A stretch of DNA of 64,000 nt, from assembly GCA_964415355.1 (NCBI GenBank), contig CAYPYS010000001.1:215399-279398 (forward strand), in the 5' to 3' direction. The translations under genes were made by a program, and so were the position numbers. This DNA comes from an uncultured Planctomycetia bacterium. Lineage in GTDB: Bacteria; Omnitrophota; Gorgyraeia; Gorgyraeales; Gorgyraeaceae. Under the pieces are notes generated by a model. The model was not told the origin of the DNA and ran no database searches. It saw only the letters and a list, made by a program, of their open reading frames with translations. Shown piece after piece: positions 26,382 to 64,000 of this stretch (position 1 is the stretch's first letter; each line of letters opens with the position of its first letter).

Positions 26382-26383
26382 CG

Positions 26384-28266: not shown

Positions 28267-28305
28267 TTAAGCATACACTTCAACATTGTTGAAGTGTATA
28301 CTTAA
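28267..28305. repeat. PIE copy 14, GCATAC/GTATAC variant (TTAAGCATACACTTCAACATTGTTGAAGTGTATACTTAA)
   Basis: Read directly. The giant-ORF stop TAA (28302-28304) lies in its right end. Confidence 0.9.
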
Positions 28306-31300
28306 GGGCACCAAGAAGCAGCTACAGGTGCTACCTCAGGATCTTCTGGGGGATTGATATTATTTCGCTCAGATTTAAAGAATTTAATAGTATGAATACC
28401 AGCGTATATTAAGAGAGCGATCAGAAAAATGATTAAAAGGGCAGTAATTGCTTCTGTGCCTGACGTTAGCGACGGTGAATGATTCTCGACATAACGGTGT
28501 AAGATTTGGTGAATATCAAAAAACGACATAAAGAACATGCTAAATCCGGATAGATAATCAAGCGTTTCTCTCTGCCCCAGAGAGCAAATTTCTAAAAACT
28601 CCTGTACATCATGAGTAGTATATTCATAACCATTATTCCCTACAGCATCTATTATCTCATCAATCCTAGGCTTTCTATCTAGCGCGAACTCTAATCTTTC
28701 AATCTCGTATTCAATTACAAGGCACAAATCAGCTGTATCAAACATTGGATCAAAAGCCCCATCTCTTTTACTATTTAACAAAACAAGCCTATCTCCATCT
28801 TTCGGAAACGGGCCATACTCCTGCCTTAGAGCTATAGCCTCGACAATAAAATAACGAATAGAAGACTTTAAATATGCCCTGAAAGAAGCTACTCGCACCT
28901 GATCTTTGAGTAAAAAGTAGAATAAATTAAAGTGACGACTTGCAAATATCAATTTATCCTCAGCCACTAAGCGTCTCATATCAGACCTAAATTTATGCAC
29001 GAATGGAAGATGAGCTTTGATCAATTCCTTGCTGACCTTACTTCTAATTGAACGACTTAGAGACAACAGTAAAATGCCAGATTCCATGCAATTTTTTTCT
29101 GTCCATTCTATATATGATCTGTCGCCTATCTGCTCCAAGAAAGATTCCAATCTTTCTTCATCTTCTGTAATCCTATCTGAAATATGCCTCTGTAGAGTTT
29201 TTGCTTCAGGTCTATCAAGAAAGATCTCACTCAATGCATAAAGAGAATTTTTATTAAGGCCTCTTAAAATAAGTCGCAATTTAATATGCAACTTGTCAGC
29301 TTCTGTGAGTAGCTGTGATAAATCTAATATTGGCAACGCGGCACTGCCGGCTAGCATATTTTGAAAACCAACCGTCACTTCTTCAGGATTTATTATAACC
29401 TTAGCAATCCAAGAATCAGATATCTCAAAATCAAAATCACTATTTTTAAATATTTCTACAGCTTTTGCATAATGTACAATTTCTTTTTCAGGACGACCGC
29501 TTCTTATGATTTTGGCAAGACAACTATCTTCTTCAATTCCCCTATTTCTTAACATGTTAATTAGCCTTAGAATCTCGACTTCGGAACGGCTGCTTTTTAT
29601 GATTTGAGCAATATGCACAGACCCTGTAACTCCTTTGTTTCCTTTTAGCTGTTCAATTAACCTTAAAATCTTATCTTCGGCACGACTAGAACCTATTATA
29701 TAAGCAATATGCGCACACTCTGCGATTTCTTTTGCCCGTAATGCGGTAATCAATCTTAAAATCTCATCCTCGGAACGCTTAGTGCTTATAATTTTAGCAA
29801 TATGCGCACCTTCTATAATACCTTTGTCTTCTAACTTGTCAATTAGGCTTAAGATCTCAGTTTCGGAACGCCTGCTTCTCATGATTTGAGCAATATGGGT
29901 AGTCTCTGTAATTCCATTCTCTTTTAGTACATTAATTACAGTCCAAATCTCATCTTCAGAACGACTACTACATATAATTAAAGCAACATGCGCACTCTCT
30001 GTAATCTCTTCTACTTTTAACTTGTCAATTAGGTTTAAGATTTTATCTCGAGAACGTTCGGTGTTTATAATTTTAGCAATATGCGTAAGTCCTGTGATTT
30101 CCTTTGCCCTCAGTGCAACAATTAGACTTAAAATATCATTTTCAGAACGACCACTTCTTATAATTTGAGCAATATGAGTACCTTCTATAATACCTTTGTC
30201 TTCTAGCTTGTCAATTAGTCTTGATATCTCATCTTTTGAACGCCTACTAGCTATGATCTGAGCAATATAAGCATTGTTTACAATTCCTTTTCTCCGAAGC
30301 ATCTCTATTACATCCAAAATCTTCTCTTCAGAACGACTGCTTCTCGCAATCATGGCAATATGCGCTCCTTTTGCAACCTTTCTTTCTTGCAATACATCAA
30401 CCAGGCTTAAAACATCCTCTTTAGAGCGCTTGTTACTTATTATTGTAAAAATTTGATAACTATTAAATAGGTAGCTATGATGTTGCGTTTCTCTTTTTCT
30501 CATAGTAATTAAAGCTTGCAAAGTGTCGAGCTTTATTTCAAGTCTTTGAAACCGTGAAATGCGCATAGCCCTCTCATTGTCAAACAGAAGCTTCCCGTCT
30601 CTTTTAATTCTACTAATAAATACCTGAATCTGAGGATTTATTTCGTTTCTTTCTTTCTCTGAATCAAACAGGAGTCTAATATTATTTATATTTTCCTCTA
30701 TCTGTGCTATCTCTCGAGACATCACAGATGAATGCGCCCTCTTAGGCGTCCCTGCAAAGGATGTCGTTGTCATGACAAAAAATACAAATCCATACACACC
30801 TGACATCACGAACATCTTAGAGATCGCTTCGTCTACTTGTAATAAATTGATAATAGCTCCTAAGCCTAAATATATAAGTACAGCAACTCCCAGGGCAATG
30901 AGAAGGTATCGTCGTTGGCGGGTTTCTTTGGCTGATTCCTTAGAAAGAAAGTCTAGTATCTCTTTAATATCTGCTTTGACTCCCTCAGGAACATTTGGTC
31001 CCGTATGCCAGCTTTTAACGATCATACCGGCTATCTCTCTATTTCTTTCTGCTTGTTCTCTGTTCTCTTCGGCGTGATTACGTAAAGATTCTGCTTGTCT
31101 GCGTCTCAGATCTGCCATTGAATAATCATTTTTCCTATCATATTCAAAAGCTTGTCTCTCTAATCTCTCAACTTCCTCATCTTGTTCTTTTGCCCTTTCC
31201 TCTAATTCTGCGGCCTTAGCTAAAAACTTTTCTACTTTTATAGAATTTCTCATGCGATACGCCGCACCTAACTCTCTTATTGCATCTTCAGTAGGCATTC

Positions 31301-34300
31301 TACGAGACAACCACCAGCTACGCAAACTAAAAACTATAAGCCAAACAAAAATTATAACTGCAACAATGGCAGAGACCATCTGCAATATCGAAAGCCACTG
31401 AATTATATCCGAAACTTCATAGCTGGAGAAATCTACAAACGGGGCAAAGGGTATAACTAGAGGAATATACTTAGTAATGTTTTCTCTTAAAGCCTCTATA
31501 ACATGTTCTTTATATCTCTCATAAGCATATTTAGGGGATATAGCTAAGTGCACCATTCTAACGCTGATGCCTTTTTTATCAAGAACACTAAAAATATGAT
31601 CAATTTCTCTTGCGATATTCTTAGAAGACGGTTTCTTCTTTTCTCTCTTTTTCCTCTTGTCCCTTCTTCCTTTAGGCCATTTTCTATTCGTAAAATAATC
31701 AAGGCAAAATGTTAACACTACTTGTCTTCTAATATTAGGCAACTCATTGACACTAGAGAAAATGCCTTCGAAATCCCTAAGGCCGAGCAAGCCATAATCC
31801 ATAATATCTAATCTGCTCCAAGACGGTCTAACCCACCAGATATTACAACCCTTGCGCCTAGCCCATACCACCCAGTTGGATTCATCTACCCTTGAAACCA
31901 AATTATGATCCGGATCATCTGAGTCATAATCAAATGCAATAACTGAATCACCGCCCCATAATAAATCCAATACTTTATCATGCGTATAAGTAACTTTTAA
32001 GTATTTCTCTTTTATTAAATAGCCACGTTTTCTTTTAAATATTATCCAATATAAAACAACTACAACAATAATCCAAAACACAATAGACCGAATATTTGAT
32101 AAACTCCCTCCACCAGAAGGCGAGCCAAACTGCAAGATCTCTGCGCTACTAAAACCCAAACCAAGCGTCGTTGCGCAAACATATGTAGCATCCTTTGTCT
32201 TGCGCCTCAGCCACTTTGCTACGTTGACTAAAGCTGCGCTTCCTATGATAATCGCCAAGGGGCTAAATTTTACCCGCCACATCAATCTACGACCAGCTCT
32301 TCTTTGCTCCTCTTCAAAATCCTCTATACCTAATTCCTCTTTATACCTCTCACCCTCTTGCTTCAGCTCTTCCATATGCTCTAATGCATTATATGCAGTC
32401 ACTGCATAGCCAAGATCTTCAGCATCGCAAAATCCCAGCTCTTCCATAACAATCCTCATGAAAACTCTCTTCATCGCATCCATCTTCAAATCCTCGTGCG
32501 TAATATCTCCTTTGATCCGAACTACCCGAATGCCTTCTAGAAATCCCCTGGCCTCTTCGTTTTCCGGAAGTCTTTCGAAAGCATCCGGATTTACCATGCC
32601 GTCTCCGAGCCCCCCGCTTCTCCCGCAGCCCAGGATACGCAAATCTTCAAAATCCAGAAACGGGAAGTCCTTATTTAACCAGTTGAATATCGCTGAATTA
32701 GATGAAGCTGCACATATAAGTGTGATATGAGGCAGGCCAGGATTATCTCTCTTTGCCTTATACATCCCCTCCTGCACCTCTTTTAAGAATTCGCTATCAT
32801 CGAGCGACTGCAGTAAGATTGTAAGATCTTCTTCAGGCGCCTCGCCTTCAAACCAGAACCATTTCTTTGATAGGCCCATAAGCCTCCAGAAAAGCGCCTG
32901 GCCCAAACCCTTCATCCATGTCGTGCCTAAAGTCGAAAGCCCATTTAAGGCAGGCGCGCCAAGCATAACCTCTGAAATCCTCTCGGCTATATGAGGATAC
33001 TGAGGCAGATCCTTGTACAGCGACCCTACGACAAGGCTCCCTATGCTTATGCCGAAAAGGACTATATCTCTATTTAACAAAAACGGGAAATCTAAAATCT
33101 CTTCTAAAAGTGGTATGATTTTTTCAATTTGGTTTTGTCCATACGTATACCTGCCTGCGTCAATATATCTATCCTTGTAGCAACCTATTGTTATGACTAT
33201 TGTTTCTTCCGCAAGTTCTCTCGCCCCTGAATGCGGATGCCATAAAACAAAATCTCCTTTTAGAGAAGGGTCCATGATTTCTTTTACCTTGACATTGCCC
33301 CAGGCAAAAAATTCAAGCGCACCATAGCCCGGGATATGTATGATGACTTTTTTATTACTATGCCCGCCGTTCATTTGTCCGACCGGGCCTCCTATGTGGA
33401 CCTCAAAAGAGCCGACATCCAACTGAATGATCTCTTGCCTAAACACCTTATCTCCCCTCACTCGCTCACCACTGCCTTCTATGCCATGAAACGGCATCTT
33501 CCATATCGCCAATTCTTCTTTAATAGAACTAAGGAGTTTTTTATTTCTTCTTTGGAGTTTCTTCTTTAGCTCCTCCAGCGCTTCTGCAGATTCTTTTGTG
33601 TATATATCTCCAAGGGCCTTTACAGCATCCATACGCTCTTCTGATCCCAGATCTCCCCGCAACACAATCTCTTTTAATTCATCTATGCGAGACGGCTCCC
33701 TGGCTTTGTGTGCTTTGTGCGTAAAAAAGTCTCTAAAGGTTTTCCAAATAACCAATAAAACCAATAGAGTTAAAAGATGTCTTGTCTCGCCGGGATTTTT
33801 TACGCGTAGACACGTGCAAGCTTCTTCTGCCTTTACATCATTACCAGCCTTGCCAAAACCATCGCCAAAATGACAAGCCTCCTCGACAAATCCATCTTCT
33901 CCGACCCTAACATCTAAATACTGCGCCAATAACCTGATCCCAATTGCTTTATTGCCAATATCTACGAATACGTCATGACTGCTACTAAAGGCAACAAAAG
34001 GCAAGGCGTGTTTTTTTCTTGCAGAATGTTTATTGACCCGTTCTGTAACTTCCAAAGCTATATATTCCAACAATGAACCAGCAACGCGTCCTTTCGGCAC
34101 CATGCCAACCGCCAGTTCTTTTCGAATTATTGTTGCCCCTACGCTTAATCTCTTTACGCTTTCTTCCAGCGCCTCTTGAGCAATATCCAATATCCTGCGA
34201 ACACTTCTTTTATCCCATCGCGTCTTGCCGCTCGGGTCCCATTCTTCTTTCGGAATCTCTTCTATGCGCCCTTCTCTATCTATCCTATACAAATAATTGC

Positions 34301-37300
34301 ACTGGCCTCCCATGATGTAAAACTTACCTATATCTTTTCTCTCAGGATAGTCAGGGAACACTTTCATCATCATGTCAATGATCCCCTGGAATTTTTGTCT
34401 ATATTTATGTGGCTCGTCAGGATGACTCAGCGCAGTCACAACAGCCACATTTATGCGAAACATCAATAGTATAACTATTAATGCCGCTAATAGGCCCTTT
34501 TTCAAAACACTGCCGCCCTGTTTATATAATGTGCCATCGCCGTCAAGAGTAACTAATTTTGGTCCTCTGGCAACAATTTTTCTCAATAGGAATTTCACTG
34601 TTGCCGCAAGAGGAGGCGAATGGAACATGCGGGCCAGGTATTTTAATATGCCGGATTTGTAGATAAGGTATGCGATTAGTAATAAAACAACGACTGTCAT
34701 TGCGAGAAGCAACAACGGCGAAGCAATCTCTAACTTTACATTCCAACGTTGTTGAAGTGTGAAGTTAAAGAGTAAAAACATAGGCATGGACATGGAGCTG
34801 CCTGGCCCATGAGTGTCTCTTTTTGTTCTCTCAGAAACCTTAAGCCTTTCGATAATATTTTTGCGTACCGAGTCAATGTCAAAACCACTCCCCGGGCCTT
34901 CTCCTATGAATCTTTCCACAAAATCGCCGCCCATCTCTTCAGTAGAAGGAGATTTCTTACCAAAACCCCCAGCCAACTCTGGCCCTATATGCGCCAATGC
35001 CTTCTTTTGATATGATGCAGCTTCTATCTTATCTGCATCTGGTACCAGACCTTTCATTGTCACATTATCTCTAGAATAGAAATAGAAATTGAATCCACCA
35101 GCCCATGGAGCGAGATAATATAAAACAATAATCTCCACATCCTTAAGACCCTCTGATTCACTTGACAAGTCTGTTAATACACTAAGTATCATGTCTGTAA
35201 CTACATTATGAGTGGGATGACCGTCTTCTCTATGCGGCATTATTACTACAAACTGCCCTTCTTCTCTAATAGCATCTTGATAGGCTTTTATAAATTCCTG
35301 AAACCTAATCTTCAATTTTCCAGCTGCTTCTATAAGTTCCTCACGGGATGGCATTACATCTGGGCTAGGTATATCAGGAATAATATTAAGATTCTCGACT
35401 ATTACAGCGCCTTCTCTCTCGCCAGATAAAACCACGCCGGCATTTCGCGCCTCCTCCCCTCTTATCTTTATTTTAAGGCTCTTTTCATCTACATGAGGCC
35501 TTGCCCTGTCTACATCATTCAAGATTATCCCTGCTTCGCCAGCGCTGAATACCATATTAATCATTATCACCTCATTCTCTGCGCCTGCTATAGCCATGCC
35601 ACCAGCTGCAATTTCCATGTCATCAGGGTGAGGCGAAGTAAAGATAAGCGGTATTCTTCTGGTTATTCTTATAGGGATAAATCCTTCGGGGGCCTTCTCT
35701 CCTTCAAATACAATAGCATGAGGCTGTTGTGAATCTGCGAGCACGCGTTCCCCATTTTTTATCCTGCCCACAACAAATGAATGAGCATATTCATAATCCA
35801 CTGCATCTCTTTCAGGAATCAATCCGTATCTTTTACCTAGCGTAGCAGCATGCTTCATGACCCAGTGAGTAATTTTTACATATTCGGTTCGGCGCGTCTG
35901 GCTTTTATGCTTACCGACAGCCTTTTTAACTCTATCTGCGATTTTTTTGCCAAAAGTGAAAACTAGGTTTACATATGAAGGATACTCAAAAGATTCATAA
36001 TAAAAGGTATATACATCCGGATAAACCTCGGCTCTATACTCTGTGACAAGCTCTCTGTTTTCTGGCGAATATGGCATCATAATAAAATCTGGCCTATAGT
36101 CGCCTAAAATATCTCCCAAGGCCTTTGCACTGTTTAATCTATACACCCTTATTTCGTTTCCATTAAGCCTTAATGCCTCAACAACATTACCGGCAAATAC
36201 CATATAATCATTTTCTACGACTTCAAACACTGCTACTTTCTTTCGTGCAGGCAATGGACATTTATTTATAGCCTCTGGTAAGTCAGGTTTATCGCTAAGA
36301 ATCACATTGCCGGATAGAGGAGACCAGTTTGACTCAGTATACCGAAGACAATTTAGATTTGCATTAATGTCATCTCTAAGACTCCTGACTTTCAAGACAA
36401 GAGATTCATCCTCTATGTTCCTCGCCATTGCCCCTAGAGTATCAAGTAGCGTTTTCTCTAAAGCAGGGAGCTCAGCAGGAATCCTCCCTGCATGGATAAA
36501 CGCAAAGAGTCTCTGAACACTTGAGGAGGGATAGGTTTTATTACGTTTCCGCAGGTCTTCTTCTAGAGACTGCCAGATTTGTTCGCAGTCCTGTTCCTTA
36601 AATACTCCTATAGCTTTTCCAGTCTCAAAAGTCAGCTGAACCGCTTCAAGGGCTTTGGGGTATAATGGACTCTCGGGATCAAGTACCATCCCTACCCAAA
36701 GTTCTTCAATCCTACGCAACAAACCATCTTCTTTAAAAAGATTGGCAAGCGGCACGACATTGACTGCCATAGTAACCATGGCCTTCACCCACTCATGCCA
36801 AATTGAATCAGCATTCTTGCCTGCATCCTCTGGAATGATTGCAGGATAATCTCTTTCTTCAAGGATTTCTTTAACGCGCCTTCGCTGAGCAATGTTATTA
36901 ATGCCCAGTCCTGCTGCTGCCAGAATAACCTTACCCTTCTTGCCTGGTATATAGACCATTGTCGGAACACCGTCTATTTCTCGCTCTTCTCTCCTGCCAG
37001 ATTGTCCTACAATTCCCCGAATCACGCATCCAGCAATGGATGTTTTGGTCTCATCAGACAATGTCTTTAACTGCTTTGAAGCACAGATTCTTTTAAATAA
37101 AGTATCAATAAACTCCTTATAATAAATCCCATTGCTCAAAAGAATAAACTTTGGTACCAATAGTTGAACGTCACCTTCGATCGCAAAATATCCCTGCCCT
37201 GCCATCACTTCTAAGAGCTCTACTAGTTCGTCCATGAAGCTCGTTAGTATCTTATCTGTATGCGGCGCAACAAAGACAACATCAGGGAGATGTCTGCTGC

Positions 37301-40300
37301 TAGAGGCCTCAGTGAGAGAAATTGATGCTCTATCCACAGTAATTTTCTGAATTTCGCCATCAACTTCAAGATATAATCCGCGTACTGGCCCGTTTAGTTG
37401 CTCAGCGCTCCTGCTTCCCTCCTGAACAATGATTACATCTGCCTTAGCATGATAAAACATAGCTATGTTCAGAGCACCGATTGGGTAAACACCTATAATA
37501 GTCCCGGTGCTACTATTTCCGGCCTGCTGTTTCTGCTCAGTAAAATAACCGAACAACTCATTGCTACTAAGCATAACCCCAGTAATAAAGCCTTGGCCGA
37601 GCCCAAAGAAATCCCCACCAGCCACGGATGAGGTGATTCCCAGCGAAGCCCACCCGGGCCATATTGCTATTCTTAAAACCTGCATAAGTGCAAAAATTAC
37701 AAAAGCTATCCAAAGAATATGCTCAATGATCTTTAAAGCACTGTTAATCTTCTGAAGACGAATTATCCTTTGAGACCTCGGTAGAACTATAGCTCCTCCG
37801 TCTGGCATTTCAATCAATCTGGACTGCACTTCATTCCAAAATTCCTTATACACATAAGCCCCGAACCTGATTCTTGCAATGCTAAATACAAAGAAACACA
37901 ACCCCAACCCTTGTCCTAATTCGGATGAAAGACCAAAAAACCCTCCTGCTTCTCGCCCTAACAGCCTTAGAAAAACAAATTTTCCTATGATTATAAATAA
38001 GTCCGCTATATTCGTCCAACCTCCAAAACCAAAGGGGATATAGTCACGATTATATTTATATACAATTTCTTCCCAGAAATTTGAAAACCAACTGCCTAAC
38101 ATTAAACCAAATAAAGCTAGATAAAAATTTGAAAATAATCCAAAGATTTGACTCTGGATAGCAATTTTCCATATAAATACGCCTAAGGTTATAAATACTA
38201 GTGCTGCGCTTAAAAAAGTCCTTAAAGGATTTTCTAAACGTGGGGTTTTAATTCCCCAGTCTTTCTTATCTGCTATGTAGCCAGCTACCCTCGCTATCAG
38301 AAACCCGACCAAAACAGACATGCCAATAACAATAAGCGGTGGTGCAGTCTCCCATAAAAAGTAGTGTAACTTTTCAAGCATATCAAATCCTGTCCTTGAA
38401 GACAGGTTTAATCTTGAAATCAAGGACAGGTTGCCAGCTGAAATAGCAAATGGTACAAGCAACAAGGCGTTGTTTTTCTGTTTTAAACTAAAAAAGATAT
38501 AATAAAAAAGCGAGACTAACATACTGGTGGCCAAGATTAAACCCCATATCAGCAACGTAGAATCAGATTGTATGGCTACCCATGTAACAGCCCATCGATA
38601 ATATAACCAATACGTCACTAGCATAGGCCCGACTGTAAGTATTAGTGCTCGCGCCATAGTTTTGCCTCGATCAGGGAAGAAAGAATTCTCAGACCAAAAA
38701 GCTCGTCTAAGCGACTTCGCTGCTATGGCCGTAGGTATAAAAACTGCTATGATGAGCCAACCAGCCATGGGAAGAGACAATAAACCTCTATAAATTGCTA
38801 AGGTAAAAGCCGTCAAACTAAACACGACCAAGGTATGTTTCTTACGCTGCGTATTATTAAACCACGCTTCATCATGTTCGCACCATCCGCTATAAGCTTG
38901 AATTTTTTGTCCCGAAATTTGTAACCATCTCCATGAAATTGTCAACATAAGGACAATTATTGGCAAGACAAGGATAACTAGTAGGTCAAATTCTGACAAG
39001 CCATATACCGCGCCATACAAAATCGTACCGGTCCCGAGCATCAAGATAACCAGGATAAAGATCAATACAAAAGATCTCCAGCCTAAAGATATCCAGCGCG
39101 GGACCTTTGATGCGTATTGTTCGTAATCACTTCCAAACTTATCTTTTAAATAACTCTCTTCTTTTATCGACTCTTTTTTAACAGACGAGCTAGTTTGAAG
39201 CGCCACGAATAATCCTGATATTAACGCGATTATCCAGGTAAGGGTCTTAGCATCCATTGGATAGAATAGCGTTGCAATAATAGAGGTTATAAAGCTAGAG
39301 AAAATTATAACATAACTAATGTATATGGGATTTCTGGTCCATCTGTAAGGGCCTTTGGCAACAAGGGCATCGGGGTAAATTTCACAACGAGTAATGATAA
39401 GATGTGGATCTATATATAGGTGTGCGTAATTGAGGAAAATACAGCTGGCAACTAAAATGCTTGCCGGCCAAAGCAAGATAGGATCGATAAGACCTAGAAT
39501 AAAGGCAAAAATTACAGAAACAAGCAACTGTCTTTGTTCGCACTTAAGATACCGCCATAGACGTATAAGGGCATAAGCAGAAATACCTAAAATGACAGCA
39601 ATCAGTTTTATGTTCACCTCTGGCGGTGGCTGATTCTCGACAAAGTGCCGTAAATTTTCAAGGATATTGAGCTGACTAAATCTGTCATTGCGAGCAATGA
39701 CAGATGGAGACACCTTAGCAAACAAGGAAACGCCTAACATGAAGCTTGAATTATCCTGATCGGATATGAGGGTGATTGCCGCAAGATTTGCCAGAGGGTG
39801 AGAGGCAATAAGGCTATGCTGTATGCGCAATGGTTCAGGATCAGCTTTAATAAGTCCCAGCTTTATAGCTAGTTCTACAGTCTCAAGACGTTTTTGAAGT
39901 CTGATAGTAGGTTTCACAGCCCGTCCCAAATGAGATAGTCCTAGATGTTCTCTTGCATTACTAAAGGTTATGCTAACATTGGACTGCGGGATAGATATCC
40001 TCTTGGAAATCTCTTTATTTGTCAGCCCTTGAGCCATAAGGGTTAATATTTCTTTTTCCCTATCAGTAAGCTGAGACATCTTTACAAGCTTTTTAAGTGG
40101 CTCAGGATCAGCTTTAATAAGTCCCAGCTTTATAGCTTCTTCAACAGTCTCAAGACGTTTTTTAAGTCGTGCAAGCAAGTTTCCCCATCCCAAAGGAGAT
40201 AGCCCTAGATGTTCCCTAGCACTTCGATAGAGTGCATTAATATTTGGCACTGTAGTAGAAAGCTTCTCAGCGATCTCTTCAATTGTCAATCCTTGAGCCA

Positions 40301-46300: not shown

Positions 46301-49300
46301 GTATCCATATACCGTTAAAATGTGATTTCAATCTAAAATAATCTAAAGAACAAAAACTGCTTATTGTGCTGTGACTTCTGCTCCCACCCCTAACCCATTG
46401 CTCAAGAAGCCAATCAGCCCCGTCTTCCTGCGCTTCGACTGACAGATACACTCGTATTGGCTCATCCTTCCTATTTCTAAACTCTAACCCACATGCCATA
46501 TCTTTTTCTGCTTCTCTACTAAGATAGTTTTCGATTTGCTTTAAAGCTACATCGGAATCGCCAACAATACCAAGCTTTTCCTTTAGTGCGCGCATCAGAC
46601 CTCTTGCAACTATGGGTTCATATGAGTAAAAGAAAAGTTTTGCTACATGCGCCATGAACTCTGATTCTAAAGTTTCCTCAAAAATATCAAAAGGATAAAT
46701 TTGTAAACCTATCTCATCAAATACACGCGTCAATATGCCATTCTTGACTTCAGCAAAGCCTCTTTCGATCCTTATTTCTTTTCTACCCTGCCATAGTATT
46801 TGACCGGCTAAGAAAAAGCCACCATTTGGACCTGTTGCAGCATTCTCAATGACGCCGTCAGGATGTTCCTCTAATACTCGCCCGGGCATTACAAATGGAT
46901 ACGCTTTCACAAACCTGCCTTCTACGCGCCTTGCCAACCCATCCACTATCTCTATCTTCGCGCCTGACCATAAAGCATTCCTAGAATCAGGACCATTATG
47001 ATAAAGATGAGTGCCAACTGCGCCATATATATCGGTACACCTATAATCCTCGAATACTATAATGCCATTATTTACTTTTATATTATGGGCCCACGCCAGG
47101 GCGCCTACGCCCCCTCTTCCAGTTTTAACCTCATTATTCGAATCTGAAGAGATCCCTGTTATCACGCAATAGCCTTTTTTGCCATACCTATCGAGAAAAT
47201 CTCCTGGTACCATGCCTGGAAAGGCATTTATAAAAGTACCCTCTACCAGCTTCCCATCCTCTATTACCGCATCCACAAATAGCGCATTTTTTCCTTCTGG
47301 GCCAATATCGCGGATCAATTCTCCTGTTGCATTATAGACCTTTGTTACACGCCCTTCTTTATCATCTGAGTTTACCTTTTCTACTCGCAGCATTAGTCCT
47401 TCCTCATTCTCATGTCCTTTCCACTTATCCCACCATGGCTTTACTAAATAAAGGCCTCCTCTATTATTCAACTTTGCATCGAGCACCACACAATCAGGGT
47501 AACGTTCAAATAAATCTCCTGGCACACGAGGAGGAAACGTCCCTACAAAAGTACCTCCGACTAACTGACCGTCTACTATAGTGCCTCCATCATATATAGC
47601 ATTTATTCCTTCACCTCTGCGATAACTGCGGATATCTCCTTCGTCTCCTTCTAGCATTACCATCGATATAAACATTAAACAAAATTCCTGACTAGGCAAC
47701 AATCCTTGCGTCATTGTGAGTGCCGTAAAAATAATGCCCAAGAGCAAGGTGAGATTATTTTGGTCGAATTCAGGAGGTTTATTAAATAACGCCATGATTA
47801 CTATGGCGACAGAGGCTATTAGCAGAAATACATCTGCCAGGTTCGCCACATCAAAACCTAGAATAACTATCCAATTTACAACATAGCCTGTAGTTAATTT
47901 TTCTGTAATGTTACCCAAAGTGCCTCCTGCTAAGATACCGAGCATAGCTAGCATAAAAGGCCAGGCTTTTGTATTTTTCCAGTGCAAGAGAAACCATAGG
48001 ATAAGAGAGAACATTAGAGTAGTTAGAATAATAGTAAAAAATACATTCTCATTATCTTTTATAACTTGTATATGCGTAAGCTGAATAACTTGTCCAAATA
48101 ATGGTGTCTTAAGAAGGCTTTTAATGATATCTACATAAGAAAGCCCCTGCTCTGATAGCACATCAAGCTGTGCAGCCGTAAGTGCAACGGGAATATTCAA
48201 CTTAACCCACAGCTTAGTGCCAATATCTATCGCAAAGGCAAGGCATGCTGCAATAAACGCCATCAACCTGCGTCTATGCTGTTTAAGCCATGACCATAGA
48301 AATGGAAAGATAATAATAGGAGCTTGAGAAGCAAACCTTACGCTGGACCTGAACATCGCGATAGGGTTAAAATTTATACGTGAACTATGCAAGAAAACTA
48401 TTTCTCCTCCCACAGATTGATATAATATAAAACATCCTTTAAAGAATAAGGAAAACATGAGACTCAAAATCCCGCACCAAAAAATAAACTTCCATTGAAG
48501 CCCAGTATTTTCCATTCCTGATATATCCAAAGAATATGCCTGTCTGTCCAGTGCATCTGTAAACTGTGCCAGCATTCTAGAGCACTCTGAATATGACGCA
48601 GCCATACCAAACCAGCCCAATACAATTATGTAGATACCCTGCGCTGCCTGAATAGCTAAATTTTGCGGCAATATAAGGCTCGATACAAAATATACCGCTA
48701 AATAACTCAAAGCGCTTTCTAATAAAGTCACGATCAAGAATCGCCGGAGTGACCAGCCTTGCTTTGCCCCGCGAATCCCAGAGAATACAATATAAGTAAT
48801 TAAAGTTGCAAGTAAACCCATAGTAAACCAAACTTCTATGTTGTCAAAAAGTCTGAATTCATGCGCAACCGACAAACATTTTTCTAAGCTCCCACTTTGA
48901 CATTGTTGAAGCGCAAGCTTAATGTTATCAGATAAAAGCGCAACTGGTGCAAGAAATAGGCCATATAATGGAGCTTTCTCTTGTTTTCTTGCTGAAGCAC
49001 ACGAAAAAATTGGTCTGTCAAAGTATAATAAATACACCAGAAAAACAAAAAACCCTACTATTTCCCCGGATATCATGCCGATGAAATCCAAAGGATCTTT
49101 TACCCTGCCAGCTATCCCTCCTAGAAAGTCTTTTGACCTATAGAATTCTAACCATAAGAAAATAAAAATAAACACAACAAACAAACCTGCTAATTTTATA
49201 ACAAGCTGTAATAGCGGCCTGTTATTTTGTGAAGGCCTGTCAAAAAACAAATAACCCATTATAAAAACAATTCCAGTCAGGCCAATAGAAATCCCATAAT

Positions 49301-52300
49301 GACTCAGCCAGCCATATATTGGGTAATAATTAACGATCAATTTTAGCTCTTCTGAACCCTGGTGTCGGATAAAATTACCTATAAAGCCAATTGCCAACGA
49401 TATACAGAGGGCTATGGATAAATAAAATATGACACGCTTTTCTTCTGCATAGTTACTCTTTTGATAAAGCTTTCCGCGGATATAGATAACGAATCCTATG
49501 AACATTGCTAATCCTAACAACATCCAACCAACCGGAATCAACCCAGGATCACCGAATCTAGACTGCCAGAAGGCAAGACATGCAAAACCAGCTATAAGAA
49601 GCGCATCGACTATGCCGACTATGATCGTTACAATGCGGGATTTTTTTGAGAGGTGCAATAAGAGGAAACCAATGCCTACTACTGCGACTATTAAGAAGAA
49701 GAATCCAAGTAAAAGCGCCCAATCAGGCGGGCCATGTTGCCAGATAGAGTGATAGAAGATTTTGTGGATGCTGAATATGTCATTGCGAGTAAAGTGACGC
49801 AATCCCGTTGAGATTGCTTCGTCGCCCATAGCTCCTTGCAATGACATGCTTGTATCAACAATAGGTGCAGAGATAATAAGCAAGCCTTTGCCAGAAAAGC
49901 CACTAGGTTTGCCTGCATCCAAGGAATATACCGACATAATCCAGCACGCAAAGGCAACAAATACACCTCCGAGCATTGCTACTACATCCAATACATCATT
50001 ACTAAATACACCTTTTAGAAAAGGACCTACATCATATAGCTCATTAAGGGTGAATAAATAAATTACTCCCACAACACCTAAGCAACGCACTAACCACACA
50101 GCCCAATTATATAGTTTCAACTTCAACAAAAATCTACACAATACTTCAATAATTATAAAAAATAATATGGCGATAAAAATCGCTGAACCAAAATTAGGAA
50201 ACCAACCGTATATGGGTTTATAATGATCGATAATACCGATACAACCTAAGCCTTGAATCACGTCGCCTGCTAAGGTAATTATTAATCCTAGCATAATACC
50301 AAAAAGACTAAGCGTAATAGCATTGGCCATAATATATTTTTTATTTTTATACGAATCCTTGATAAACTCGTCGACGTAGACTATAAATTTAAACGATAAG
50401 GCCACACAAATTACGCCCATCGTTCCAACAAGAAAAAGTCCTGCATCAACTTTTATGCCTTGTACAAATATAAACGCGAACCCAATAACTAAAAGAGCTA
50501 CGTTTGTTATCCCGACTATCTTGGCCAAAGGGCTAAAGGTCTTCATAATAACGGGTAATTTTTCTTTGTCTCTTGATAGCACTTCATTAGAAATCCATAA
50601 TGCCGTCATAAAAAATAAAAGCATCAGGCCAAAATATATAAAAGTAGCTGTGTCCCTCTCCGCACAGCTAGAAACCAAAGCCACATTATCTGTATCCAAA
50701 TAAAACAAGCTTCCGGTGATCCATCCTGGCTGCGTCGCCATTGCAAACATCTTAAAGATTTCTGAAAATCCATATATCGAACCATACAAAAGCGTACCAG
50801 TCAGAATAGTCAAGCCAATAAAGATAGAGATCAATGCAAAAGACCGCCAGTGCAAAGATATCCAGGCTGGGACTTTAGAGTTATACTGGTCATAATCACT
50901 TCCAAATTCACCTTTTAAATAGTTTTCTTCTTTCGCTCCTTCTTTTTTAAATAACGAGCTTGCTTCAAGCATTCCGCATAACCCTGATATTAATGCTATT
51001 GTCCAGGCAAGAATCTTGTTAGCATCTATCAGATAGAATGCCCCTGCGGAAATAGATACTATATAGACAGAAAAGATTATAATGTAACTAATATATTTAG
51101 GATTTCTAGTCCATCTATAAGGACCTTTGGTGGCAAGTTTATTAGAGTAAATTTTATAATCAGTAAAGACAAAATGTTTATCTATATGCAGGCATGCCCA
51201 GTTGAGTAATATATAGCTAGTAATCAAAACGGCTGCTGGCAAAAGTAAAATAGGGTCAATAAAACCTACTGCAAAGGCAAAGGCTATGGAGATAATCAAC
51301 TGCCTCTGTTCGCACTTCAGATGCCGCCATAGCCGCATCAGTGCGTAAATAGAAAGAACTAAAAGTACAGCGATCAGTTTTGTGTTCGCCTCTGGCGGCG
51401 CCTGAGGCTGGACAAAGTTCCGCAAATTTTCAACGGATGGAGACACTTTGCCAAATAGACTCGTAATTGGTATAAGCATAAGCACATCGTCCCAGACATC
51501 ATCATCTGGATTCCGGCTATTATGTCCTCCGCTTGTCTCTAATTTTTTCAGGTACGCAAATGCGCTGCGCATCTGTTTTGGGGTAAATTTTATTGTGACA
51601 TCTAGATCTAATCCCCATACAGTCCGTCCCCTGCTCCAATCTTCTAAGTCGCGAAGTTCCCCATGAAGCTCTTTTCTTCGTAGTTCTGATATATATTTAA
51701 CAGCCTCTCTTATATCAGGAGAAAATATATTACGAAACATAGCAAGGCCCACAATAAAGAAAATAACGGGCCATAGATTTAAATTTGGCAGCCTTGTACC
51801 GTTTTGGAATCCGTGCGCAACCTGTCCCAAGCCCCCAACCGAAGCGAGCAAGGAAACGCCTAACATGAAGCCTGAATTATTCTGGCCGGATTTGTGATAT
51901 TGAATCAAAAGCCTGATCAAAGGAATGCTTAATAAAATAACGCTCAAAAGAAATATATCTGCCATATTTGTAGGATAAGGATCATTAATGATAGACCACA
52001 GCCACCAGTCTGTGACTGAGCCCTGAACGACAATTTCCGTTATATTGCCAAGAGCACCACCTATAGCTAATCCACCTATGATATGCCAAAACGCCTTATT
52101 TGTTATTTTTAAACTTATCCATATAGCTAAGATGCCGATCAACAAACCTCCGAATGCAGTAGAGATTTCTGAATTAGTTGCAACATGCAGATAATGCGTA
52201 ACTTGAATAGCGCCTTCAAGCAGTGATGTCTTTGGAAGGTTTTGTATAATATCTACCCTTGAAAGTCCGCTACTTACTAATTCATCTACCTGAATAGACG

Positions 52301-55300
52301 TCAATGCAACAGGAATATTCAGCTTCACCCACAGCTTAGTGCCTATATCTATTGCAAAGGCAAGGCATACTGAAATAAACATTATTAGCTTATGGTTTGG
52401 TTTTTTCAGTCGCGGCAATAGACGGACAAGGAGGAGTGCAAGAACTATCAAGGAAATAACAAAAAGAATAGTGACTGTCGTTATATGTAAGTCTAGAGGC
52501 GGTGCGTTAGGCTCGACAAATGCAATGACAGATGGAGATACCTTCAGGCCGGGTAAAGGCGCTCCATAATAAGGGGTCGTGGTCATTTTCAGGATACCCT
52601 CATAAGGCATAGATTCGTATTGTTCCATAAGGGAAAAAACTTCTTTTCTGAAGAGAGTGGAAAAATGATTCCTATAGAAACAAAAGCTCATGAAAGCGAT
52701 GCTTAAAACCATGATGAGTATATACTGCCACCCTGCCTTTTTAAGTTTCTGGGCAAAAAGCTTCAAAGAGGAAAATACCTTTCGTAGAGTGTTTTCACGG
52801 GAATAAAATGTCTCTGATTCCAATACTACGAGTAAATCTCTTTCTTTCATCCAATTAAAAATAGCATCGACCATTTCTTCGCCCTGACCGTACTCCCAAC
52901 TAATATTACATACTTCTATTATTGCTTTAAGAGTACGATAGAGCTTGCTCTCCGTAATATTGTTTAACTTACAACGTATATAAGCCCAACTAAACTCCTG
53001 GTCAAAATAAGATGATGCTATGATCTTCAATGTTTCTATCTCTATCGGCAGCAATCCCTCTAACAGCTCATGAGGGTAAAGTGATATCTCTAAATCCGGA
53101 TCCGAAATGTATGTACTAGCAGCCTTTAATATTATAAAACGTCTTTTTATCTCCTCTCTCTTCCCGCCGCCTTGATAAGCAGGTATCTCATGTCCCAGAT
53201 TTTTAAGGATATTCACGATCTCAGGAATATAATAAGTTCTTAACCCCGCCAACATTTTATCCACATCTTCGGTTACATCTTCCCCTCGTGATTTTCTCCA
53301 GTCGATAAAAACTTGCGCAACTTCTTTTCTGTCTATAAACTTTCCTAATTGCCGTAACAAGAATATCAGCTTCTCACTAAATACTTCCGGCAATACTTCC
53401 GGTAATACTTCCGGCTCCTCAGGCTCTCTAATCTCAGAATATGCTATGAAGCTTGCAGGATCCAATGATAAAGGAATTTTTTGCCCATTTTTTATTGTAA
53501 CTAAACCTCGCGCTATAATGACCAGTTGTTGATATTGCTCTCTGGGCCTGGGATATTCTTTTGCTTTTGAAAAATGAGGATTTCTAAGCAAACGCTCGAT
53601 TATCAGTTCTATTTTTCTATTCGAGATTTTTCCAATGCAAGTGCTGTTAGAGCCGTCCAGTGCATTTATAATCTGATGAAATTCAAGGATCCCACTCGCC
53701 ATGACTTTTAAAACATCCAATTGTTTAAAATCTATATTATGTTCCATCATTATTCTTAACTGAGGCGATATCTCCAGATATGGCATATAAAGCATTCTGA
53801 CGATCTCCAATATAGCAAGGCGCATATCAAGGCCGCGGCGGCTATCTCTAAGTCTGAAGATCTCGCCTTCCATCTGTCCTGATTCCTTTAGTTGTTCTAG
53901 CAAAGATCCTTTTAATTGGCTAATAGAATTTCTAATGGCACTTATTGTGCTAATAATTAAGAGGCGATCGATTTCTTCTGGTTTTTGTACTCTTATGCCA
54001 TCTGACCTCTGCTGCCATCGAATATATGAAATTGCAATTTCTGCTAAATTCTTTTGTTCTGCAAATTCTCTAATTAGAAATATCAGGCTATCTGAAAAAG
54101 GAATGCTTTCGCGCTCTAGCAGCATAGCAGAGTCTACGCCTTCTATCTTTCCGGCTTCTATAGCTGCTAGAACAGTTTCTTTGTGCACTCTACGAACTTC
54201 TGATGCCTCTAACGACCGCGGAGGAGGCACTTCCATCTTACGCCTTGCAGAATTATAGCAAACACGTACATTATTTTCACTTGTGCCCAATTTATGGGCA
54301 ATCTCCTTAGGCGACAATGCTTTAGCCAAAAGCTCTAATACTTCTTTTTCCCTAGGAGTCAGCCAATGAGTTTCTTTGCTTCTAGTATACTTAAAGAAAA
54401 AACCAAAACCTGATTTAAAAACGCGAATTCCAAATAATATAATAGAAAAAATTAAAATTGCAAGCAAACCCATAGTAAACCAAACTTCCGCGTTGTCAAA
54501 AAGTGCGAATTTAAAACTGCCTGATAATGCTGCAACCGGCGTAAGGACTAAACCATTTATATAACCTCTTCCATTATTGCTTCGTCTTGAGCTTCTGCTC
54601 TTCTCTTTTTCTGAAAGAGCCGAAAAGCCTTCTTTTTTCAGACGTGGCAAATATGCCAGAATATCAAAGAGAGCTATCATCTGTCCACACACCATGCCAA
54701 TAAAATCTAACGGATCCCTGATTGTTCCGAAAAACTGTGTCAGAAAATCCTCTGGCCTAAGAAATTCTACCCAGTAGAAAAACGCCATAAACCCAAAGAA
54801 TAAAGTGATGAATCCTAAGGAAGCTAACCATGGCAAACGCCAGCGTAGCGAAAGGCTACGTAAAACTAAATATCCTATCAAAAAAGAAGGACCAGTCCTG
54901 GCAATAGCAAGTCCATAGTGATTCAGCCAACCATATATTGGATAATAATGGATGATCGACCTTTCTTTACCCAAAACTTGTATAAAATCACCAAGATGGC
55001 CGATTGCAAATCCTAGAAAAAGGCATATAAACGAATAATATAAAACAGACATATTGTTGCTGAATTTATTCACTGTGTATCTAGCTGTCTTTGCGTATAT
55101 ATAAGTAGTAAATCCAGCACCTGATGCTGTGCCTGCCAATATCCATGCAATCTGTTCTAATCCTGGGTTGCCGAGTTGTACCTGCCAAAAAGCAAGGCCA
55201 GCAAAACCAGCTATAAGAAGCGCATCGACTATGCCGACTATGATCGTTACAAGGCGGGATTTCTTTGAGAGGTGTAACAAAAGAAGGCCAAGGCCTACTA

Positions 55301-58300: not shown

Positions 58301-61300
58301 CCATATGCAACCGATCATCTTCTATCAAATCCCTGCCATCGCCGTTCCAGAATGCAAGCACCAGCTGGAATTTATCGCGCACTGCTTTTATCTCTTCTAA
58401 AGATATTTTGTCTCTATTTCTAGCGTGTATTCTTCTATCTATTGCTTCTACATCGCTTCTTCTATGATCCTCACCTAACATATAAATAAATATTCTCATT
58501 TCATGTGGAGTCAAAAGCTCTTCGAGACATTGTACGAATAGTTCGCCATCTTGTTTAGCAATAAGAATTTCTTCTGTGGGTCGATGACGAGGCGCGCCAA
58601 GCCATTCATGCGAATCTCCATCGCTCTCGTATACAGAAGGCGCATCAAGAGAAAAATACTGCCCCAGACTTATCACAGCTAGGGCCTGTTTCCAATCTTC
58701 TGCCTGCAACGTAAGGCTTTCCAGTTCTTGTAGTATTTCTTCATAAGCAGCATCAGGGCCTAATCTAAAAATAGCGTCTCTTAATATACCTAATACATGT
58801 CTGCCTCTTTCCCTGAAAGGGCAACGTTGAGGCTCGATAAACATACCTTCTCGGAACAAAACATAACCCACGATCGGCAATAAGCCGCCTTCTCTCCCTG
58901 CCAATATCTGCACGCCTCTTATCCCCCCGGAAAATTCTATAGGTTCTATTATTACTTCGTTACCAGCCAATTCAGTACTCACATGAACTTTTATAGCTCT
59001 GCCGTTTATCTTATATAGGTATATCGTTCCATCCGCGCCAACCCTTTTGGTTTTTCTGGTAGGGGCTTTATCGCCATTGATCTGAAACAGCACAAATTCA
59101 GACTGCCATTTGCTTTTTACCTGGATATTAAGGCCTTTATGTTCAATATAAGTTACGAAAGGTGTATTTCTATGCTCTTCTCTTTCATAAATACGAACGC
59201 TTTGTCTTATCTTATTTGCATCTATTTCCTCATTCATCAGAGTATCTTTATCATAAAAGCAAAAATCCTTGAGAGGAAAAACTGGCTCATCATGCTCATC
59301 TACTACCCAGTAACGCAAGAAATGCTGCATTTTACCTCCGACTCGCAGGACAAATGGCTCTTCATATGCCCTTTCAAGCCCATTATGTACGTGGAGATTA
59401 AGACGTCTGCCTTTAAAACCAGGCAACTCTCTTTCACCTGCAATTAAATCTACAGGCTGACTTTTCGGCATGGCCTTTCCTGTTAAGAACCAATATATCA
59501 ATTGATAATCTCTCATTGCCAATGGCCCTTTGAGCCCATCAGCCACAAATGGAATCTTTTCATTCCTCATATTAAATCGCCTGCGGCTCGCTCTCGCTTC
59601 TCCAGCAGTTAAAAACCTATCATTAGAATAAAGGACATAGCTGACAAAAGGAAATTCAGTCTCTGTGCCTTCTTCTCTGACCCAGTATATTACCCCTCGC
59701 TCGCCGTTTCCAAAGTCTGCTGCCTGACGATATGTATCTGGTAAAGACGGGTGGATAGGACACTGCACGCGAGTTCCGCTTAAAGTATATAAATACTCTT
59801 CACCGTCTCTATAAAATTTGGTTACTTCCTGTTTTCCAATAGGCCTATCTTCTCCTGTTTCAACAAAATATGATAATTCTGCTATATCCTTTCGGCTGCT
59901 ACTAAACCGCGGCCTTGCCTCAGCAACTGATTCTCCGGTCCCATCCATCACGATGCATGCGAACCAGGCTGCCTGCAAGGCAAACTGGCTCAAAAAACGC
60001 AATGATACATAGTTATAAACTTTCAGTAAAATAATCACAAAAATAATACCTAATATTATACGAATGACGAGATCTCTGGTGGTATTTGCGTGGGCTATCA
60101 GTATATCTTCTGCTTCGTAACCTGCTTTTTTAAGTTTATCTGCCGCTCTATCTTTTATCTGCTTCATCTCTATTAAGCCAGATATGCTTTTGACTATAAG
60201 ACGCACAGCTAAAATTAGAAATATTGCAGAAGCTATAGATATAAGCAGGAAGAATCCGAGCAAGACTACTATATCCGGCGGGCCATTCTGCCAGATAGAG
60301 TGATGGAGGAAGTCCTGGATATTAAGCTGAGCAAAGATGTCATTGCGAACAAGCGCATCCTTTGTCATTGCGAAACCAAAAGCAGAAGCAATACCAGCTC
60401 TCATCACAGTGCTCTTTGGAAATTCCAAAGCCTGCCTGAGTTCACTAAACTTATCACCTATAGCAACAACTATATGGTCACCTGCTTTGATATGATTCAG
60501 ACGCCTCTTTAAGCATGCTCTTACTCCGGTCTCTCTTATAAAACCCCAATCTCGTGCTAACTCTTCTAGGGTTCTATCTCTTTTCTGCGCGGCATGCGCT
60601 TCTTCTATTGCCCAGTCTAATATTGCCAGTGGCACAGCATGCATCCACTCATCCAAAAGGCCGCAGACTCCTTCAGGAAGTTCGTCAGAATCCTCAAGCG
60701 CTTCTCTTTCTTTTATGAATTCTTCTCTTATAAGTTCATACCAGTCCAGCCATTCACAAAATAATACTGTGTCTTCTTTGATTTCAGAAAGCATTTGAAC
60801 TTTATAGGGATCTTCCATTTGGTCAACCACTCTAAATAAAACCCGCAATATAAGACGCGTTCTTGTATCAACTTCTATGAGTCCCCATTCTACGGCTCGA
60901 TTCACAGTCCTGAGGCGTTCTACGAGAGCTTTAATGCGATCCAAGCGCTTGGTTATACGAGATAGACCTAAAGCTTCTCTAATATCGTTGTATGCTTGGC
61001 TAACAAATTTATGAGAAGAATAAGAAAGCCCCTCAGCTATTTCGTTATTCGTCAATCCTAGAATTATAAAAGTCAATATCTTATCTTGTGCACAAGTAAT
61101 ACGCGGAGTCTCTATAAGTTCTACAAGCGGCGTAGTGTCAACTTTTGGAATACGTTTTAGCTTTATAGCTATATTCACGGCCTTAAGGCGTTCTTCTAGA
61201 TCGGTAATGTAATCTGGGCGTTCTGTTATACGAGACAGACCTAATCGCTCTCTGGCATCGTTGTAGAATTCACTGACAGTTTTTTCAGAAATACCAAATC

Positions 61301-64000: not shown

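Follow-up and report, generated by a model that had tools for sequence, protein, structure and literature searches.

The stretch of DNA considered here (64,000 nt, referred to below as the window; positions 215,399 to 279,398 of contig CAYPYS010000001.1, assembly GCA_964415355.1, from an uncultured bacterium) contains the 3′ part of a giant gene. A six-frame scan revealed, on the minus strand, a frame free of stop codons over 35,694 nt (window 28302-63998), and the second-longest stop-free stretch of the window reaches 3.8 kb. The in-window part of this open reading frame (ORF) comprises 11,898 sense codons and ends with a stop codon at 28302-28304. A preceding reading made from the letters and a list of ORFs (the sequence-only reading) had described one frame without stops over 35.7 kb, too long to arise by chance and still open at the window edge. 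The length stands, since the probability of meeting no stop over 11,898 codons, calculated from the ORF's own base composition, is about 1e-367, and the frame is indeed open at position 64000. The strand had to be corrected: because the gene lies on the minus strand, the frame is open towards its 5′, N-terminal side, and the window contains the C-terminus.

In its two remaining frames, the coding strand is interrupted by 64-113 stops per 3 kb. The codon-position signature is uniform over all twelve 3-kb bins of the ORF (GC1 0.43-0.55, GC2 0.34-0.39, GC3 0.30-0.39), with purine at the first codon position in 0.57-0.68 of codons. The GC content, previously put at about 37%, was measured as 40.4%, with a regional spread from 37% to 44%. 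The GC3 of the bins is lower than that of five neighbouring genes (0.46-0.52), with similar GC1 and GC2; relaxed selection, a faster turnover or another origin might explain this more AT-biased codon usage. An alternative genetic code was considered and rejected: there is no TAA-, TAG- or TGA-type stop in the frame, and the neighbouring genes give normal full-length family matches under table 11. The same gene is found on the JGI contig Ga0118727_1000073 (173,006 bp), where its product was called at 28,837 aa (at least 86.5 kb). The called gene extends to the end of that contig, so this size is a lower bound. It is thus a genuine single giant gene of at least 86.5 kb, with a tail of 35.7 kb in the window. 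The domain searches described below covered the C-terminal 11,898 aa; at least ~17,000 aa on the N-terminal side extend past the window edge.

Assembly support and selection

Long frames in short-read metagenome assemblies might be created by chimeric joins or by collapsed or expanded repeats. When the neighbouring solute-binding protein was looked up by exact match, four JGI contigs carrying this locus came up, each from a different sample (L001-L004). Compared with Ga0118727_1000073 over 21.3 kb, the window shows 3 mismatches, all outside the giant gene, and is therefore a near-identical sibling of that assembly. A contig of an ENA assembly from another BioSample (L085, 14.9 kb) includes the gene's terminal 11.9 kb, and the 3,925-aa gene call on it (P0001) is 100% identical to the C-terminus of the window protein. 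Altogether, five other assemblies (the four JGI contigs and L085), at 99.9% identity or higher, extend over as much as 11.9 kb at the 3′ end and agree there, which argues against an artefact. Within the gene, the assemblies differ at two positions only, both of them mismatches in the terminal ~100 nt of L085. This terminus (L085:1-100, window ~40100-40170) lies inside a 267-nt tandem array of LuxR/GerE units, described below, and its first 43 nt are not collinear with the window.

The array, two units of which are 92% identical in amino acid sequence, is the one fragile spot of the assembly, and the copy number of eight could be wrong. However, its unit equals 89 codons, so an error in copy number would leave the frame unchanged. 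The remaining internal repeats are diverged (30-75% amino acid identity in self-BLAST), too far to collapse, and Tandem Repeats Finder (TRF) reports within the ORF the GerE array, a C-terminal array of 31-aa units, a trivial 12-mer, and nothing else. A stop-free single frame of 35.7 kb and a codon signature that is uniform throughout are also not expected to survive chimeric joins. The dN/dS between internal paralogous modules is 0.27-0.85, mostly 0.3-0.6. Diverged paralogues with such values indicate that the gene is evolving as a protein under selection, albeit fairly relaxed.

Modules of the encoded protein

Family searches were conducted on overlapping chunks of 1,200 aa against Pfam, NCBIfam and PDB sequences, and residues are numbered below from the open end of the frame, with window coordinates on the minus strand. 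Hydropathy, the only basis of the topology given here, indicates 50-92 transmembrane (TM)-like hydrophobic 19-mers, depending on the threshold. Soluble blocks of 200-1,350 aa alternate with TM blocks of 1 to ~35 helices, and ~60% of the protein has no family assignment. The product is thus predicted to be a polytopic membrane protein, a mosaic of modules usually found as small separate proteins. The sequence-only reading had proposed dozens of TM helices and such a mosaic, and had suggested per-module profile searches as the check; the hydropathy count bears out the first, and significant matches in Pfam, NCBIfam and PDB for most of the called modules support the second.

The best-preserved soluble modules resemble enzymes. 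A 5-formyltetrahydrofolate cyclo-ligase (MTHFS) module, aa 6998-7179 (42462..43007), scores 126.8 bits in Pfam and 127.7 bits against NCBIfam TIGR02727, above the equivalog cutoff of 84.9, and matches PDB 2jcb with E = 7.6e-20. Its motif GRGGGYYDR is intact and aligns with GYGGGYYDR of 2jcb. The module at aa 9453-9606 (35181..35642) belongs to the PIG-L/LmbE-type deacetylases (Pfam PIG-L, 46.1 bits, cutoff 28.2). This family is defined by the zinc-binding motifs HPDD and HxxH, and both sites are present here: SPHPDD lies at aa ~9456, HPTH at aa 9594. It is followed by a phosphatase module of the haloacid dehalogenase (HAD) superfamily, specifically of the ISN1 type, at aa 9788-10082 (33753..34637; Pfam ISN1, 172.6 bits, cutoff 25). 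In comparison with the structures of ISN1 (PF06437) from Plasmodium falciparum (6rn1) and yeast (8j6h), the module shares 295 aligned residues with 6rn1 at E = 5e-37, and the HAD motifs I (DxDxT), II and IV are conserved; DGDGT, VTA and GDxxxxxGND are intact when aligned to PfISN1. On the other hand, only the catalytic C-terminal part of the profile is matched (positions 145-407 of 407), and the module sits in a bacterial membrane megaprotein, whereas the characterised ISN1 members, IMP 5′-nucleotidases of yeast and Plasmodium, are soluble eukaryotic enzymes. Judging from these motifs, catalysis by the MTHFS, ISN1-type and PIG-L modules is plausible. All three had been named in the sequence-only reading, the ISN1 module as HAD-like, and each was recovered by the profile searches.

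Other soluble assignments of that reading fared less well. The GNAT acetyltransferase-like module at aa 34-107 (63678..63899), at the very edge of the window, is weak: Acetyltransf_1 scores 21.3 bits, just above its cutoff of 20.7, and Acetyltransf_7 scores 21.7 bits with a cutoff of 27. The proposed alpha/beta-hydrolase-like block, aa 10180-10560 (32319..33461), was a candidate based on motifs only (VIIHIPGYG; IVLFGISIGSLV) and gained no statistical support. There is no Pfam match at E <= 5 and no PDB match at E <= 10, and a GxSxG motif following a hydrophobic strand is the only feature that favours the fold. The single-sequence AlphaFold2 (AF2) model, with a pLDDT of 38.6, was unusable. The HEAT-like regions reduce to a sub-threshold HEAT_PBS match of 15 bits in Pfam.

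By copy number, the protein is dominated by LuxR/GerE helix-turn-helix (HTH) units. Pfam, phmmer with an array unit as query, and alignment identify 13 clear units and one marginal unit, so that of the 14 or more proposed earlier, thirteen are secure and a fourteenth is marginal. Three units at aa 778-1054 (60837..61667), starting at aa 778, 875 and 966, were found by phmmer and supported by alignment to GerE/NarL, and Pfam GerE scores 74 bits there over two stretches. Single units are located at aa 3209-3297 (54108..54374; 37.8 bits, with a match to NarL in PDB) and aa 6738-6826 (43521..43787; 51.7 bits). The remaining eight form the tandem array at aa 7349-8060 (39819..41954), with 239 bits over eight stretches. 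Its unit is 89 aa or 267 nt, and TRF reports a period of 267 and 7.3 copies; dN/dS between the array units is 0.27-0.85. The units keep the scaffold residues of GerE/NarL, with an insertion of ~13 aa preceding the last helix in the alignment. Their recognition helix is the most variable part, they are basic overall, and the soluble block around the array carries a net charge of +34.

Among the membrane-embedded modules, three resemble signal peptidase II (LspA, Peptidase_A8). Modules 1 and 2, at aa 3864-4052 (51843..52409; 33.1 bits; motifs GNITE and TNMAD) and aa 5238-5426 (47721..48287; 37.1 bits; GNITE and ANLAD), are above the Pfam threshold, matching the two copies proposed before; there is also a third, degenerate copy at aa 8530-8700 (37899..38411; SNFWEE and TNIAD), with 24.3 bits against a cutoff of 25. 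When compared with known LspA structures (6ryo, 5dir), the C-terminal half of the fold aligns, and every one of the three copies retains GxxGN, N-x-A-D and the second catalytic Asp. The catalytic Asp dyad of LspA is carried by GNxxDR ... FNxAD, and its first Asp is replaced by Glu in each of the copies, as shown by the motifs and, for module 2, by alignment to the Staphylococcus aureus structure 6ryo. The NCBIfam LspA models give 16-29 bits, against cutoffs of 74-321, and LspA is a stand-alone protein of ~170 aa, whereas the modules here are embedded in a giant protein. They are best regarded, from these alignments, as homologous modules, not demonstrable LspA enzymes.

Two further membrane modules resemble isoprenylcysteine and phospholipid methyltransferases (ICMT/PEMT). 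Two ICMT/PEMT-like copies, as claimed before, are present, though Pfam scores stay below threshold (PEMT 21.2 and ICMT 19.7 bits for module 1, aa 4180-4413, 50760..51461). Module 2, aa 8091-8336 (38991..39728), is an internal paralogue, 64% identical to the first, with the C-terminal family-like motif EESYLKDKFGSDYEQYASKVP. Signatures of the family are GxYxxxRHPxY and a C-terminal EExxLxxxFGxxYxxY. Both copies contain the C-terminal motif, as EE(S/N)YLK(D/G)(K/E)FGSDY(E/D)QY, and GPYRWTRNPxYISY at the first position, that is, RNP in place of RHP (His to Asn). The relatives of module 1 found by a full HMMER search are bona fide small ICMT/PEMT proteins (E = 2e-8 to 1e-3), which supports the kinship. 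The sequence-only reading had seen in these and other components a hint of lipid, lipoprotein or cell-envelope modification chemistry. This suggestion is weakened by the Asp-to-Glu change in three LspA-like copies and RNP in both ICMT-like copies, and also because the best-conserved modules (MTHFS, ISN1 and LuxR HTH) are of cytoplasmic type and unrelated to the envelope.

The C-terminal end contains about 11 repeats of 31 aa, aa ~11158-11498 (29505..30527), recognised by TRF (period 93/186 nt) and self-BLAST. They were modelled as helix-loop-helix hairpins forming an alpha-solenoid (AF2, pLDDT 59), and the best Foldseek matches of the model are pentatricopeptide repeat (PPR) proteins. Assignment to PPR or HEAT repeats was rejected: the PPR-like matches are local, with TM-scores (template modelling scores) of just 0.2-0.3, and the array is for this reason described only as a helical-hairpin solenoid.

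One recurrent element was observed where TM blocks begin or recur. It reads (A/S)EAISTGL(H/R)xF(A/T)RND(I/V)F ... S(I/L)WQ(H/N)GPPD, followed by TM helices, and occurs at aa 423, 1218, 2865 and 4738 (window ~62730, 60345, 55404 and 49785), with partial copies at aa 6021 and ~8100. Possibly it is a cassette for membrane entry or anchoring that the gene has used repeatedly. A search of the 21 syntenic giant-ORF tails from relatives discussed below did not find it.

Locus, host and relatives

The gene directly downstream of the giant ORF encodes a PilZ-domain protein of 111 aa (27771..28106; JGI precomputed PF07238 on the identical gene). Then, as assigned by Pfam, come a solute-binding protein (26420-27751), two ABC permeases (25444-26331 and 24527-25375) and a GH2-like hydrolase (22171-24504); the cassette from the solute-binding protein to GH2 (22171..27751) appears to serve carbohydrate uptake, and its order and sequence are conserved in Omnitrophota relatives. 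Further away are a GspF-like gene (2987-4063; T2SSF 223.8 bits) and a pseudopilin with an N-methylation motif (1874-2521; N_methyl and T2SSJ). All these genes are on the minus strand, and the remaining genes of the window on the same strand encode GH2-like hydrolases, ROK, a TolC-like protein, HlyD, two AcrB-like pumps, YchF and PurH. Outside the giant gene, the window is thus an ordinary diderm-bacterial gene string. Every family-assigned ORF of the window lies on the minus strand, and the GC skew is negative in every 2-kb bin. There is no tRNA gene and no Rfam match in the 64 kb.

Some of these neighbours have features of their own. One AcrB/RND pump (8634-12437, minus strand, 1,267 aa, ACR_tran 795 bits) has an extra C-terminal DeoR-type HTH at aa 1209-1253 (29.9 bits, cutoff 21), and such a fusion of pump and HTH is unusual. 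The TolC-like protein (OEP, 13758-15593, minus strand, 159 bits) has an N-terminal TonB_C domain at aa 60-128 (27.2 bits, cutoff 24.6). Two conserved genes on the minus strand, at 17203-20001 (932 aa) and 21368-22120 (250 aa), gave no Pfam match here; a faint Porin_4 is listed for the first by JGI, and each has a syntenic counterpart in Omnitrophota relatives, with 36-71% identity.

Among the GTDB species genomes, 474 relatives of the flanking GH2 were found; the majority of the top 80 carry the label of Candidatus Omnitrophota MAGs or SAGs, and identity reaches 75-77%. Based on the flanking genes and the titles of the records, the host phylum is assigned to Omnitrophota, in agreement with an earlier guess that is further borne out by the conserved downstream gene order. 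One of the source BioSamples (SAMN10231904) was taken from the marine water column, and water-column metagenome-assembled genomes of this BioSample come from oxygen-minimum or oxygen-deficient zones (PMC12220078).

The downstream genes are arranged collinearly with the window in its seven closest relatives, with identities of 50-65% for PilZ, 66-75% for the solute-binding protein, 82-89% for the permeases, 67-76% for GH2 and 70-78% for ROK. Besides GH2, eight downstream genes are in synteny in the nearest genomes, at 50-89% identity. Over nine flanking genes, identity to the closest relatives ranges from 36% to 89% and mostly exceeds 58%. At ~20 loci where the upstream flank is complete, an ORF still open at the locus edge stops at the syntenic position of the giant gene; such syntenic long ORFs were noted at L005, L008, L009, L012, L013, L016 and L017 (positions 1 to ~6400) and at ~13 further loci. 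Their tails (1,400-2,100 aa), however, show no detectable similarity to the window protein and almost none among themselves. Queries made of the complete protein, of its modules and of the C-terminal 2,200 aa, run by tblastn, blastp and phmmer against 80 related Omnitrophota loci and 21 syntenic tails, gave one weak match (L049) and no other similarity. The tails also vary in their domains: that of one relative (L008) contains a Peptidase_A8-like module with the canonical Asp-Asp dyad and a GNAT module, and that of another (L016) a PRK/uridine-kinase domain. The tails are therefore alike in place and in domain style, that is, position and the style of building blocks are conserved and the sequence is not. 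Relative to its flanks, the giant gene shows extreme sequence turnover.

Searches in wider collections were of unequal power. Full HMMER with aa 3756-4955 against 1.84 billion representatives gave 19 matches at E <= 1e-3: the protein's own C-terminal fragment, found via the internal paralogue, 17 small proteins that match in the ICMT/PEMT-like module only, and a 335-aa protein with no Pfam family (P0009), which matches residues 2-61 of the query. The LspA-like module and the other TM blocks within aa 3756-4955 had no detectable relatives in this search. Word-indexed searches with aa 1-5000 and with unannotated soluble blocks joined into 4,837 aa found no homologue. The same kind of search with the PIG-L and ISN1 cassette also found no relative, and it misses real ISN1 relatives (PDB matches to 1e-35), so its blanks are weak negatives and no proof of orphan status. 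Two scans of metagenome contigs, with the window-edge segment and with an alignment of the ICMT-like paralogues, found no relative and missed even the source contig.

Proposed function and comparison with known giant genes

Taken together, the ORF is very probably the tail of a single Omnitrophota giant gene at a conserved giant-gene locus, encoding a polytopic inner-membrane protein with captured and partly duplicated modules. It is proposed that the soluble modules were captured from ordinary small proteins and some of them duplicated inside the gene. The giant ORF would be translated as one polypeptide and inserted into the membrane co-translationally. The cytoplasmic face would then carry the HTH array and the modules that depend on cofactors (ATP and IMP, with SAM and acetyl-CoA added by analogy to the families), and the protein would act as an inner-membrane-anchored multi-enzyme and regulatory scaffold. 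This orientation is given slightly less than an even chance. It would correspond to the [quoted passage not shown] class of Nielsen and Lui (2026; bioRxiv 10.64898/2026.06.07.730766), and the whole locus would most likely function in the host-dependent way of life, episymbiotic or predatory, that has been proposed in connection with giant proteins of Omnitrophota.

Several points weigh against this picture. One of the mismatches in L085 would create a TAA at aa 7953 of the giant protein, ~100 nt from the contig end, although the stop and the mismatches are probably an artefact of a repeat at the contig end. Farther than 11.9 kb from the stop codon, the gene is supported by the window and the near-identical JGI contig only. 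The estimate of topology from the positive-inside rule is internally contradictory. The LspA-like and ICMT-like modules, given their altered signature residues, may be non-catalytic. Neither SecA_DEAD nor C39/S8 was found by Pfam in the C-terminal 11,898 aa, with the N-terminal ~17,000 aa or more lying outside. Finally, a published multi-enzyme giant of 147 thousand amino acids (kAA) is predicted to have a signal peptide along with TM helices, with its content facing outward (Nielsen and Lui, 2026).

The last point leads to a different orientation, in which the soluble blocks lie in the periplasm, on the surface, or reach the prey, and the protein is an effector or “coat” modifying the prey envelope. 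PIG-L would act on polymers of N-acetylglucosamine (GlcNAc) and the LspA- and ICMT-like modules on lipoproteins or lipids, together with GH2, the sugar importer and the type II secretion system (T2SS). Enzymes of the PIG-L family do use GlcNAc substrates, and the flanks with their sugar ABC importer, GH2-like hydrolases and T2SS/pilin genes fit an outward role, which is also what published work prefers for the entire locus. Yet no adhesin, carbohydrate-active enzyme, dockerin or lectin domain was found in the 11,898 aa examined, and the best-conserved modules require cytoplasmic substrates (ATP and 5-formyltetrahydrofolate for MTHFS, IMP for ISN1). The 13 basic HTH units are domains of DNA-binding type, and the substitution in every LspA-like copy also does not speak for activity on the envelope. 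The outward orientation is thus favoured by the flanks, not by the domain content of the window segment, and is considered rather unlikely.

Less probable still is that the single chain is a polyprotein, cleaved into many membrane and soluble proteins by its own peptidase-like modules or by an N-terminal C39/S8 peptidase. This possibility is compatible with the cytoplasmic scaffold as well as with the outward effector. Modules that correspond to normally stand-alone proteins, the presence of three LspA-like modules, and the linker-plus-TM element ahead of several TM blocks would suit it, and cleavage of giants by C39/S8 was suggested by West-Roberts et al. (2023; bioRxiv 10.1101/2023.11.21.568195). 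However, self-processing at internal lipoboxes was examined and rejected, as lipobox-like motifs are not enriched (5 observed, 2.4 +/- 1.5 expected). The catalytic dyad of the LspA-like modules is altered, and no other peptidase was detected in the window.

A contact-dependent apparatus whose cytoplasm-type modules work on the contents, not the envelope, of the host or prey appears quite improbable. In one form, it could be a membrane-tethered platform that binds DNA and salvages nucleotides or folates at the attachment site, with the locus kept and its sequence replaced under an arms race; the intact catalytic motifs, the strongly basic HTH block, the diversified recognition helices and the unrelated sequence at syntenic positions are all compatible with it. 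That the long ORF is an assembly artefact is exceedingly improbable: the fragile array, the break of L085 within it with a stop codon at its end, and the limit of independent support at 11.9 kb are set against the concordances described above and ~20 related genomes with syntenic long ORFs at the same position.

If the inner-membrane giant protein is placed among known systems, it turns out that the kind is not new. The statement in the sequence-only reading that no characterised protein of this architecture was known does not hold, because TM-rich multi-enzyme giants of Omnitrophota, with GNAT, HAD, signal peptidase II and HEAT among their content, and the same locus layout were already described, and the ORF is therefore not a new category. 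Omnitrophota giant genes are among the longest coding sequences known. ORFs above 20 kb were reported in most Omnitrophota classes, encoding TM helices, few annotated domains and poorly conserved sequence (Seymour et al., 2023; PMC10066038). West-Roberts et al. (2023) described TM-rich giants of up to 85,804 aa, most of them followed by PilZ and then by a solute-binding protein, permeases and a glycosyl hydrolase, with N-terminal C39/S8 peptidase domains that might cleave them. A divergent SecA_DEAD / SecA preprotein-binding domain is a feature of most published giants. In the set of Nielsen and Lui (2026), there are 916 proteins of at least 10 kAA, the longest of 147,155 aa; TM helices or a signal peptide occur in 94%, and at 30% identity 80% stand as singletons. 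GNAT, HAD and signal peptidase II content is found in their “multi-enzyme” class, the repeats are diverged at the nucleotide level, and the flanks include GH2, GspF and TonB-domain genes. In size, the gene exceeds the 20 kb of Seymour et al. (2023), and its at least 86.5 kb, with the 5′ end beyond the contig, compare with the >90 kb of West-Roberts et al. (2023).

The closest locus is that of the Archaeovorin type, whose type protein is the 39,678-aa protein of Velamenicoccus archaeovorus LiM. It shares with the window the phylum, an ORF of tens of kb with numerous TM segments, domains far diverged from their families with most of the sequence unannotated, the succession of a small PilZ protein, solute-binding protein, permeases and glycosyl hydrolase, and T2SS genes nearby. 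It differs in that Archaeovorins are defined by glycosyl transferase, glycosyl hydrolase, NUDIX, TPR and HEAT domains, none of which is above threshold in the 11,898 aa here; the window has methyltransferase-like (ICMT/PEMT) and peptidase-like (LspA) modules and the sub-threshold HEAT_PBS, with over half of the protein outside the window. Published giants are described as preceded by a locus of more than 10 subunits resembling T2SS or type IV pili; here such a region would lie past both the window and the 173-kb contig, and GspF and a pseudopilin are found ~24 kb downstream. The resemblance to the multi-enzyme and tandem-repeat-scaffold classes of Nielsen and Lui (2026) includes many Pfam families tiling a TM-rich chain, among them GNAT, HAD and signal peptidase II, nucleotide-diverged repeats, flanks with GH2, GspF and TonB-domain genes, and the status of a sequence singleton. 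Unlike their members, the protein is a hybrid of classes 1 and 2 in which GerE dominates by copy number (13), a placement based on domain content and hydropathy, whereas the published classes were assigned by DeepTMHMM topology. Their set originates from Fennoscandian groundwater or the Baltic Sea, and the gene described here from a marine water column.

No mention of LuxR/GerE, MTHFS, PIG-L or ISN1 was found in the texts of West-Roberts et al. (2023) and Nielsen and Lui (2026). The GerE array and these three modules are new details within an already described kind of giant gene. The intact, individually expressible modules provide biochemical handles that could separate a cytoplasmic multi-enzyme scaffold from an outward prey effector, and the comparison of conserved flanking genes with giant-ORF tails that have no detectable similarity gives a quantitative contrast between the two. 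To the published giants, the window adds one from the marine water column, of at least 28,837 aa, with a set of modules not highlighted before.

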